Shown one piece after another: positions 27,240 to 27,954 of a stretch of DNA of 43,160 bases (positions are counted from its first letter, which is position 1; every line of letters begins with the position of its first letter). Made by a program: the position numbers and the translations under genes. The stretch covers positions 1-43,160 of IMG/VR virus record IMGVR_UViG_3300014682_000024, one strand, 5' to 3'. The notes below the pieces were generated by a model. It was not told the DNA's origin. It did no database searches and saw only the letters and a list, made by a program, of their open reading frames with translations. This DNA comes from a virus. Lineage: Duplodnaviria; Heunggongvirae; Uroviricota; Caudoviricetes.

Positions 27240-27564
27240 GTAAAAAACACCCCGTCAAAAGCACCGGCATCCGCAGATGCCCTTTGCGTGGCGTTATTTG
27301 ATGCGCACCAGATGTGGCGCAAAGAAATGAAATAAGACTTATCGGAAATTAAGGTTAATTTGAGGATTTAAACCACTTCTGAAGCTTAGTAGTATGAACA
27401 TGTCCCCGGAAGGGGGCCAATACTTATTATTCTTCATGGACTTTGTCCCGCGGTCTTAATCCGACGACCGCGCTACTTTTCACCCTCTCGCAAATTGCTA
27501 TCCAAAGGACGTTGTCCCACGAGTATTCCTGGATGCTCGTGTCTTTTTTGTCCTGAGAAAGGAA

Positions 27565-27589
27565 TAAAAAAAACCGCCAGATATGGCGG
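27565..27589 (-). terminator. Terminator-like hairpin in the ORF-free region between tRNAs and holin
   Basis: ccgccatatctggcgg followed by T8 on the minus strand. Confidence 0.45.
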
Positions 27590-27954
27590 TTGGTCAATGC
27601 AAGGGATGAATTTTTTAATTGTTATTAAACCGAGGCGTCGGGTGCCTCCCGAAGTATTCCGTGCTGTATGGATACTGTGGTTTCCCGCTAAACCGACTCT
27701 TTAAACCACCCTCGCACTGAGGAGCGCCTCTATGGTGCGATTTACAACACCAGAATGATGCATCACCGACCCTGCCAGGAAATACAAAATCTCCACCGAT
27801 AATGCACCATTCTGCTGCCGTAAAAAAATCAGCACTGAGGCTACACCCGGCCTCAAATCATAGCCAGAGAACAGAATGCTTTTTCAAAACAACCTGCTCC
27901 CACGTAATAAAAAATACGCCAGTGCCGCAATACAATAAGGCTTGTTTCAAATGC

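Follow-up and report, generated by a model that had tools for sequence, protein, structure and literature searches.

A non-coding, hairpin-rich module between the phage tRNA genes and the holin of a lambdoid prophage, with predicted sense and antisense small RNAs

The window analysed here is the whole of IMG/VR virus record IMGVR_UViG_3300014682_000024 (Caudoviricetes; 43,160 nucleotides, nt), and our subject is the gap, hereafter the slot, between its two phage transfer RNA (tRNA) genes and its lysis genes. The late genes of this prophage are read from the minus strand of the window, in the order Q antiterminator, DNA methylase, tRNA-Thr, tRNA-Gly, slot and holin (Table 1). An earlier note, based on the letters and their open reading frames (ORFs), had described a hairpin-rich region lying between the phage tRNAs and the holin; the place is correct and the coordinates are right to within a few bases. 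The slot is non-coding, carries more hairpins than expected by chance and is conserved as a mosaic module in prophages of Escherichia coli. It is argued below that it probably serves as a source of small RNAs (sRNAs).

Setting and non-coding character of the slot

The slot had been called ORF-poor and free of any stx-like ORF, and both descriptions hold: its late strand has no ORF of at least 60 amino acids, no credible gene can be found in it, and nothing resembling stx is present. None of the signs of a protein-coding sequence, namely a conserved frame, codon periodicity and indels in multiples of three, can be detected. Among 44 distinct full-length homologues, the 306 variable sites are spread over the positions modulo three as 107/107/92 (p = 0.48), and 29 of the 35 distinct indels are not multiples of three.

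Small proteins could nevertheless be proposed from two late-strand ORFs, one of 32 codons (27437-27339, MKNNKYWPPSGDMFILLSFRSGLNPQINLNFR) and one of 51 codons with a TTG start (27856-27701), or from those that have been annotated in relatives. Of 55 distinct variants, 40 have an uninterrupted 32-codon ORF that starts with ATG or GTG, and PGAP annotates ORFs of 103-132 amino acids in two relatives. However, the 32-codon ORF is frameshifted or truncated in the other 15 variants and differs in the paralogous copy described below. Between two alleles it has accumulated about 4 synonymous and 8 non-synonymous changes (counted from the aligned sequences), its variable codons are covarying hairpin positions, and it has no Pfam match. 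The annotated ORFs of the relatives, for their part, traverse a terminator hairpin, and in the window stop codons interrupt them. The 32-codon, 51-codon and PGAP ORFs were all rejected as coding, as was a 21-amino-acid plus-strand ORF, the ATG of which is lost in another allele. RefSeq "hypothetical proteins" can be found inside the slot of three relatives (L008, 3114-3512; L010, 3115-3426; L003, 3618-3743), and two of these three calls, which read straight through the terminator hairpin, are probably spurious.

Regarding the hairpins, a consensus scan found 16 terminator-like sites in the 5-kb region against 5.9 +/- 2.6 in shuffled sequences. The three minus-strand hairpins already named in the earlier note were recovered, i.e., 27239-27224 followed by U6, 27591-27572 followed by U8, and 27281-27266 with its GGCATC/GATGCC stem, together with additional sites at 27856-27835 (minus) and at 27518-27541 with U6 (plus). 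Individual hairpin folds reach -12.4 (z -4.5), -11.1 (z -2.4), -10.8 (z -2.0) and -12.7 kcal/mol (z -4.5). A G+C-rich hairpin directly followed by a U-run, as expected of an intrinsic terminator, is present at 27591-27572 and 27239-27224 on the minus strand and at 27518-27541 on the plus strand, and termination is predicted at these three sites; the hairpin at 27281-27266 has only a weak tail.

Table 1. Features of the late region around the slot, in the order of late transcription (positions in the window)
Feature	Position	Strand	Remarks
Q antiterminator (PF06323)	30590-29895	minus	Pfam
Hairpin just after Q	29832-29805		perfect, bidirectional; A- and U-runs on its flanks
DNA methylase	29332-28286	minus	between Q and tRNA-Thr
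Promoter-like site TTGAAG-16-TATTAT	28197-28170	minus	9/12 consensus match; ~55 nt upstream of tRNA-Thr
tRNA-Thr(UGU)	28108-28033	minus	ARAGORN, Rfam tRNA
tRNA-Gly(UCC)	28029-27955	minus	ARAGORN, Rfam tRNA
Slot	27950-27215		between tRNA-Gly and holin
Three-arm (cloverleaf-like) junction + U7	27927-27822	minus	closing helix CGGCACUG/CAGUGCUG
Closing helix of the three-arm junction	27927-27920 with 27837-27830	minus	U7 = 27828-27822
Long hairpin, 34 bp	27824-27741	minus	28-bp lower stem (one G/G bulge) and 6-bp apical stem
B1, candidate Hfq-type sRNA	27752-27565	minus
B1 four-way junction	27730-27632	minus	closed by GAGGCG/CGCCUC, 27730-27725 with 27637-27632
B1 linker	27631-27592	minus	A/U-rich, (AAN)-rich; contains AAUAACAAU, (AAN)3 run
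B1 terminator + U8	27591-27572	minus	-12.4 kcal/mol, z -4.5; strongest of the slot
Candidate antisense sRNA	27400-27549	plus	convergent with B1
Second antisense module + U6	27507-27541	plus	degenerate copy of the last two hairpins; long form ends ~27549
Hairpin with invariant loop UUAAUCCGAC + U4	27449-27472	plus	stem covaries; short form ends ~27480
Hairpin GGACUUUGUCC	27438-27448	plus	invariant
Antisense 5' hairpin	27402-27417	plus	followed by U-rich single strand
Antisense promoter-like site	27367-27372 (-35); 27390-27395 (-10)	plus	TTTAAA, 17-nt spacer, TAGTAT
Segment E hairpins	27320-27305; 27281-27266	minus
Cargo junction	27297..27299		recurrent BLAST breakpoint, query 823/824; empty in the window
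Segment E terminator + U6	27239-27224	minus	U6 = 27223-27218
Holin Shine-Dalgarno sequence	27211-27206	minus	start codon 27198
Holin (Phage_holin_8)	from 27198	minus	then second holin, then M15 endolysin

Distribution, mosaic structure and cargo

By megablast the slot can be found in 328 of 5,426 complete E. coli genomes, in 203 of them near full length and at 80-99% identity, the matches all being on chromosomes and very rarely annotated. Strains that carry this prophage include that of NZ_LR778147, at 99.9% identity, and APEC O1. The slot is also contained in the phage records vB_EcoS-683R6 and SerU-LTIIb, and two scans of IMG/VR yielded about 120 prophage loci. The homology begins upstream of the tRNAs and ends just before the holin ribosome-binding site, with flanks that vary among hosts (a DUF1133-type Q upstream; a lambda-type holin, essD, rrrD and trkG downstream). 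Recurrent breakpoints delimit five segments, A (27950-27737), B (to ~27562), C (to ~27480), D (to ~27298) and E (to ~27211), and these recombination breakpoints lie between the structural units described below, not inside them. A scan of one genome per species gave Escherichia ruysiae as its sole match; since it used an exact pattern taken from segment D alone, restriction to Escherichia holds for that pattern only. In one alignment (A3), the row of locus L101 is misaligned (its coordinates were guessed), which leaves the paired columns unaffected but blocks the marking of columns as invariant.

No Rfam family lies above threshold in the slot at either gathering or permissive settings; AgvB, AsxR and Esr41 gave no Rfam match there at E up to 10, and isrK reached 11.8 bits only (gathering score 50). 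When the slot was compared by BLAST with the Q-to-holin regions of E2348/69 PP2, 933W and K-12 DLP12, nothing was found, homology to IpeX being taken no further than this comparison, and a full-text literature search for one slot sequence string returned no result.

Slot length among relatives ranges from ~440 nt to >1700 nt. A cassette of ~680 nt is inserted exactly at the D/E junction (~27298) in about 20 related prophages and encodes a TerB-family protein (PF05099, 1.7e-07) together with a DUF3927 membrane peptide (PF13064, 8.7e-14). The suggestion of an empty cargo site, to be checked by aligning related prophages, is supported in that the slot holds this gene pair in the relatives just mentioned and a further gene in one, and the window represents the cargo-free form of a real cargo site. 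The further gene, in the relative with the slot of >1700 nt (L129), is a 194-amino-acid ORF without Pfam match, located between a B2-type terminator (see below) and the TerB cassette. TerB and DUF3927 have also been reported beside the Pas sRNAs in prophages of enteropathogenic E. coli (EPEC; bioRxiv 10.64898/2026.05.13.724894).

Duplications can be found as well. Four related prophages (L087, 4115-4790; L068, 6570-7250; L052, 560-1236; L045) harbor a second, tandem copy of the unit, comprising the long hairpin, B1, its terminator and segments C, D and E; this copy is 67% identical and is referred to below as the paralogue. SerU-LTIIb (L001, KU052038; 1122-4127) has two successive sets of tRNA, slot and holin, the second without segments C and D (~240 nt).

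Other RNAs and genes were noted in passing. A P1/P7-type C4 antisense RNA with a1/b1 targets and isrK lies upstream in the same loci (L100, 665-863; L019, 2338-2540), and sok antitoxin RNAs occur in several related prophages, both at Rfam gathering level. Just downstream of the lysis cassette of the window, a 267-amino-acid ORF (24457-25260, minus) encodes a K88-type fimbrial subunit (PF02432, E 2.5e-46) and is apparent cargo; SerU-LTIIb carries the LT-IIb toxin genes at the same position.

Structured domains of the two strands

The two tRNAs, which score 69.8 and 65.6 bits with the Rfam model, are predicted to form the head of a transcription unit that the slot continues on the late strand. 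Segment A follows every tRNA-Gly end for which enough downstream sequence is available, the exception being one copy with a deletion in the hairpin. Of 119 loci, 24 have the pattern TTGAAx-N16-TAxTAT equally far upstream of tRNA-Thr, with differing spacers. The -10 hexamer of the window site lines up in each of the six related module variants compared, one being of the DUF1133-Q type, but does not do so in the row of 933W pT, the analogous tRNA promoter annotated in that phage. In L087, a copy of this promoter region precedes the second, tRNA-less unit. The site is probably the promoter from which the tRNA operon and its trailer are transcribed independently of Q. Folding of the minus strand over 27954-27562 yields -143 kcal/mol, compared with -111 +/- 4.6 in shuffled sequences (z -7.0), and three domains can be distinguished in this stretch.

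The first is a three-arm junction. When 46 distinct variants were folded independently by minimum free energy, 44 showed exactly three hairpins within a 7-bp closing helix, whereas only 12% of shuffled interiors adopt this topology, and the arms are unrelated in sequence across five or six allele classes. Closing-helix variants that change U-A to U·G or G-C to G·U pair on the minus strand only. A reading as a tRNA or tRNA pseudogene was rejected; ARAGORN and Rfam find only the two true tRNAs, and the arm lengths and loops are not tRNA-like. With its U7 run, the junction is a candidate for either a leaky first terminator of the tRNA operon or a signal for its processing.

The second domain, the long hairpin, includes a 9-nt 3' bulge, CUGGCAGGG, and six G·U pairs, and its energy is -42.7 kcal/mol on the minus strand versus -17.8 on the other. 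Over 43 variants, 96.7% of 1,462 cells pair and 6 pairs have changed on both sides; 0 of 500 shuffles reach the observed values, and slid registers are 37-55% paired. Many positions switch from G·U to G-C or A-U, so that pairing is kept on the minus strand only, and the hairpin is retained in the paralogue, where C-G and A-U pairs have been replaced by U-A. The bulge is exact in 114 loci and different in the paralogue. As a long imperfect duplex, this hairpin is a plausible RNase III-type substrate. Neither it nor the three-arm junction has a match in Rfam or in the three phage or prophage regions compared.

The third domain, B1, combines a four-way junction, an A/U-rich linker and a terminator. 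In 39 variants (67-100% identical), its 31 pairs are 97.3% paired and 7 have changed on both sides; one pair of the closing stem is CG in 20 variants and UA in 18, with a covariation score reached by 0 of 500 shuffles. The terminator is shared by B2, an alternative allele of shorter length. No convincing promoter directly precedes B1, hence the simplest model is one unit made of the promoter, the two tRNAs and a trailer ending at 27565.

Segments D and C, in contrast with the preceding domains, appear to be read on the opposite strand, where motifs and folding models point to a likely antisense sRNA gene, convergent and about 80 or 150 nt long. In 31 variants the hexamers of the promoter-like site are kept and its spacer has no indel, and the 17-nt spacing persists over unrelated spacers in L101 and in the paralogue (-10 TATACT). 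The plus-strand fold of the unit reaches -47.7 kcal/mol (z -3.2), compared with z -1.2 for the complement. Its 17 pairs are 96.6% paired, with 4 changed on both sides. One pair is UG in 21, UA in 9 and CG in 1 of the 31 variants, of which UG becomes C·A on the other strand. In every allele class, the third hairpin has a run of U4-U8 behind it on the plus strand, and the second module scores 16.5 bits with model R2. The invariant loop UUAAUCCGAC, like the linker of B1, is a predicted seed. A sigma-54 promoter reading of CTGGCAGGG was rejected because the GG-to-GC spacing is wrong.

Segment E closes the slot. Its last terminator ends 7 nt before the holin Shine-Dalgarno sequence, and in comparisons with prophages that have another holin (essD) the homology stops right behind the U-tract. 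The hairpin itself is nearly invariant and is kept whichever holin follows, including in the paralogue. Between the tRNA promoter, presumably constitutive, and the holin, the late strand presents three terminator-like signals and one weaker hairpin, with an opposing promoter between them. By analogy with established lambdoid late-gene control, from which the insulating role is derived, these terminators and the antisense transcription are likely to keep the lysis genes silent in the lysogen, with Q-modified polymerase reading through.

Interpretation and relation to known systems

We favor, with moderate confidence, the view that this conserved, non-coding sequence, with its strand-specific covarying structures, its terminator and promoter motifs and its polymorphic cargo, is a module combining a structured sense trailer, an antisense sRNA and insulation of the lysis genes. 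A Q-independent promoter upstream of tRNA-Thr would transcribe the two tRNAs and a structured trailer of ~390 nt, in which the three-arm junction with its U7 run would act as a leaky terminator or processing signal, followed by the long G·U-rich hairpin, plausibly cleaved in RNase III style, and the four-way-junction domain. Through readthrough of the first U-run and processing, the last ~190 nt could be set free as a trans-acting sRNA of Hfq type, akin to STnc100/PasD. The convergent plus-strand promoter would give an antisense sRNA of about 80-150 nt, fully complementary to the leader of the late messenger RNA (mRNA). In the lysogen, the sense terminators (27828, 27572, 27224 and the weaker 27266) and opposing transcription would stop ordinary RNA polymerase before the holin; after induction, Q-modified polymerase would pass them. 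The suggestion that the slot may encode small RNAs is accordingly the best reading of it outside the cargo junction, with the RNAs predicted. What the earlier note had missed is that the slot continues the tRNA operon, that part of it is read on the opposite strand and that one domain resembles STnc100/PasD.

Several points weigh against this view. All the RNA products are predictions, and we infer their processing, the dependence on Hfq and the insulating role. The antisense promoter matches the consensus at 8 of 12 positions only, below the scan cut-off, and the evidence for the antisense strand comes mainly from one wobble pair, the U-tracts and this promoter. A branched structure is unusual as a terminator. 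No promoter is evident directly upstream of B1, so that its release depends on assumed readthrough and processing. As to the likeness of B1 to STnc100, 18 bits compare with a gathering score of 47, the reciprocal matches, obtained in search spaces kept small on purpose and with E-values that are roughly calibrated, amount to 10-12 bits, and the CGGGAGGCACCCG motif common to STnc100 is lost in the paralogue.

Alternatively, the slot could give rise to a single sense RNA, tRNA trailer or late-mRNA leader, acting in processing, stability or holin timing (e.g., through RNase III cleavage or translational control), with neither separate sRNAs nor an antisense gene. The strongest strand-specific evidence, that of the G·U pairs, is indeed on the sense strand, the Watson-Crick covariation of the segment D hairpins suits either strand, the antisense promoter match is weak and Q-modified polymerase must transcribe the entire slot in any case. 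Against this, the plus-strand -35 and -10 hexamers and their 17-nt spacing survive complete replacement of the spacer; the U4-U8 run always stands 3' of a plus-strand hairpin and would be a functionless A-run on the sense strand, where the UG/UA/CG pair is C·A in 21 of 31 variants. The fold is likewise stronger on the plus strand (z -3.2 vs. -1.2), and PasA offers a precedent for an antisense sRNA at this position. A single sense RNA is regarded as rather unlikely.

The other interpretation put forward earlier, that of a decayed or empty cargo site, would make the slot a leftover spacer kept by linkage and its hairpins relics of the terminators of lost cargo genes. Relatives do hold TerB and DUF3927 or another gene, over the range of lengths given above; segment E resembles the 3' flank of the missing cassette, and ORFs are occasionally annotated in relatives. 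However, pairing is maintained at 96-97% with compensatory changes in four separate domains, including alleles that are 67-75% identical; the breakpoints fall between structural units, and loop and bulge motifs are invariant. Because the sequence is kept as a conserved mosaic module and compensatory changes preserve base pairing in every domain, the slot is not decayed, and of the earlier interpretations the real cargo site and a probable source of sRNAs are retained. As a full account of the slot, a leftover spacer is decidedly improbable.

Large RNAs without an explained role are found beside phage tRNA genes, such as ROOL, GOLLD and the T4 stable RNAs in the tRNA cluster. On this model, the ~390-nt trailer could be one large ornate RNA tied to the tRNAs, with its cloverleaf-like junction, 34-bp bulged hairpin and four-way junction, and not an ordinary base-pairing sRNA. 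It might then be a tRNA-mimicking decoy, or serve as a scaffold in processing or in protection from the anticodon nucleases of the host or other defences; we give this idea little credence. Small proteins are the least credible explanation, given the coding evidence set out above.

With regard to known systems, the Q-to-holin gap of lambdoid prophages is the site of Shiga toxin, of other cargo and of recently found, abundant Hfq-bound sRNAs, namely STnc100, PasD and PasA/C (PMC8550237; bioRxiv 10.64898/2026.05.13.724894; PMC12370729). PasD is an abundant Hfq-bound sRNA (PMC8550237), and in Stx2 phages STnc100 occupies the corresponding slot, 75 nt beyond stx2B (PMC12370729). The Rfam model of STnc100 (RF02076) aligns over its full length (1-206 of 206) with 27758-27562 at 18.2 bits (E 0.15 in a 761-nt search), matching the closing stem of B1, its first hairpin and the hairpin CGGGAGGCACCCG. 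The gathering threshold of 47 bits is reached neither by B1 nor by any of 13 related loci scanned; PasD2 of EPEC E2348/69, reported as a structural homologue of STnc100, is also below it, with 41.4 bits. In the reciprocal direction, a model of the B1 family (R1) run with filters off has its best match in 933W at 3786-3985 (12.4 bits, E 0.002), where the Rfam consensus motifs and the reported position of STnc100 lie, and its best match in E2348/69 at PasD2 (9.7 bits, E 0.009); each match extends over the full length and has the right strand. With default filters R1 missed STnc100 and PasD, the weak matches appearing only with filters off and in small regions.

B1 and STnc100/PasD share a position on the late strand between Q or cargo and the lysis genes of lambdoid prophages, a length of about 200 nt, and a multi-branch domain with a long-range closing stem, a C-rich/G-rich first hairpin and a CGGGAGGCACCCG-type last hairpin, followed by an A/U-rich single strand and an intrinsic terminator. 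On the other hand, similarity is absent at BLAST level, the linker (the putative seed) is unrelated in sequence, and B1 comes after tRNA genes, to which it is joined together with the three-arm junction and the long hairpin, instead of having an obvious promoter of its own before it. The weak reciprocal signal, with architecture and position in agreement, suggests that B1 is distantly like STnc100/PasD, but membership of the Rfam family fails.

The antisense unit invites comparison with PasA/PasC of EPEC E2348/69. The predicted unit and these sRNAs alike run antisense to the late operon and occupy the gap that precedes the holin (promoter and terminators here within 27367-27549 on the plus strand, holin on the minus strand from 27198; PasA on the minus strand, between an esterase and the holin), and both end in a hairpin and U-run. 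Mature PasA is 84 nt, and PasA/PasC share the association with TerB-family neighbor genes (bioRxiv 10.64898/2026.05.13.724894). Unlike PasA/PasC, however, the unit adjoins tRNAs and not a sialate esterase gene, and its hairpin layout differs. Similarity in sequence or by covariance model was not found: BLAST of the slot against the E2348/69 PP2 region gave nothing, and model R2 with filters off had no match in the PasA/PasC loci. An antisense match of R2 after the 933W esterase gene (11.8 bits, E 0.59) is not significant.

The 3' external transcribed spacers of tRNA operons, e.g., 3'ETS-leuZ, are comparable sRNA-like operon tails. A precedent for a stable-RNA operon is given by rrA, rrB and rrF, sRNAs made between the dual terminators of the ribosomal RNA operons of E. 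coli, where a leaky first terminator is followed by a strong second one and the B1 RNA would likewise arise by readthrough and processing (PMC8144298). Unlike the present trailer, with its ~390 nt and three covarying domains in a prophage, those tails and spacers are chromosomal, much shorter and unrelated in sequence. StxS of the Stx phages is similarly an sRNA by-product of the terminator/antiterminator control of the late operon (PMC7547250), but it is the pR'-tR' transcript right after Q, and its equivalent here would lie at ~29890-29805, outside the slot. The hairpin just after Q is probably tR', in which case the short pR' transcript equivalent to StxS would end there; this hairpin also resembles Rfam STnc370 weakly, with 35.9 bits against a gathering score of 54.

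The locus of the window would thus represent a third, sequence-unrelated version of the Q-to-holin sRNA locus, which roughly 4-6% of complete E. coli genomes carry, almost always without annotation. Here an sRNA-like domain is joined to a phage tRNA operon, and a predicted antisense unit and tandem terminators would protect the lysis genes. If true, this would add new members to the prophage sRNA repertoire and make several "hypothetical proteins" in databases probable mis-annotations, and it would provide a concrete case of an sRNA derived from the trailer of a phage tRNA operon as well as a testable mechanism for the silence of the holin in lysogens.

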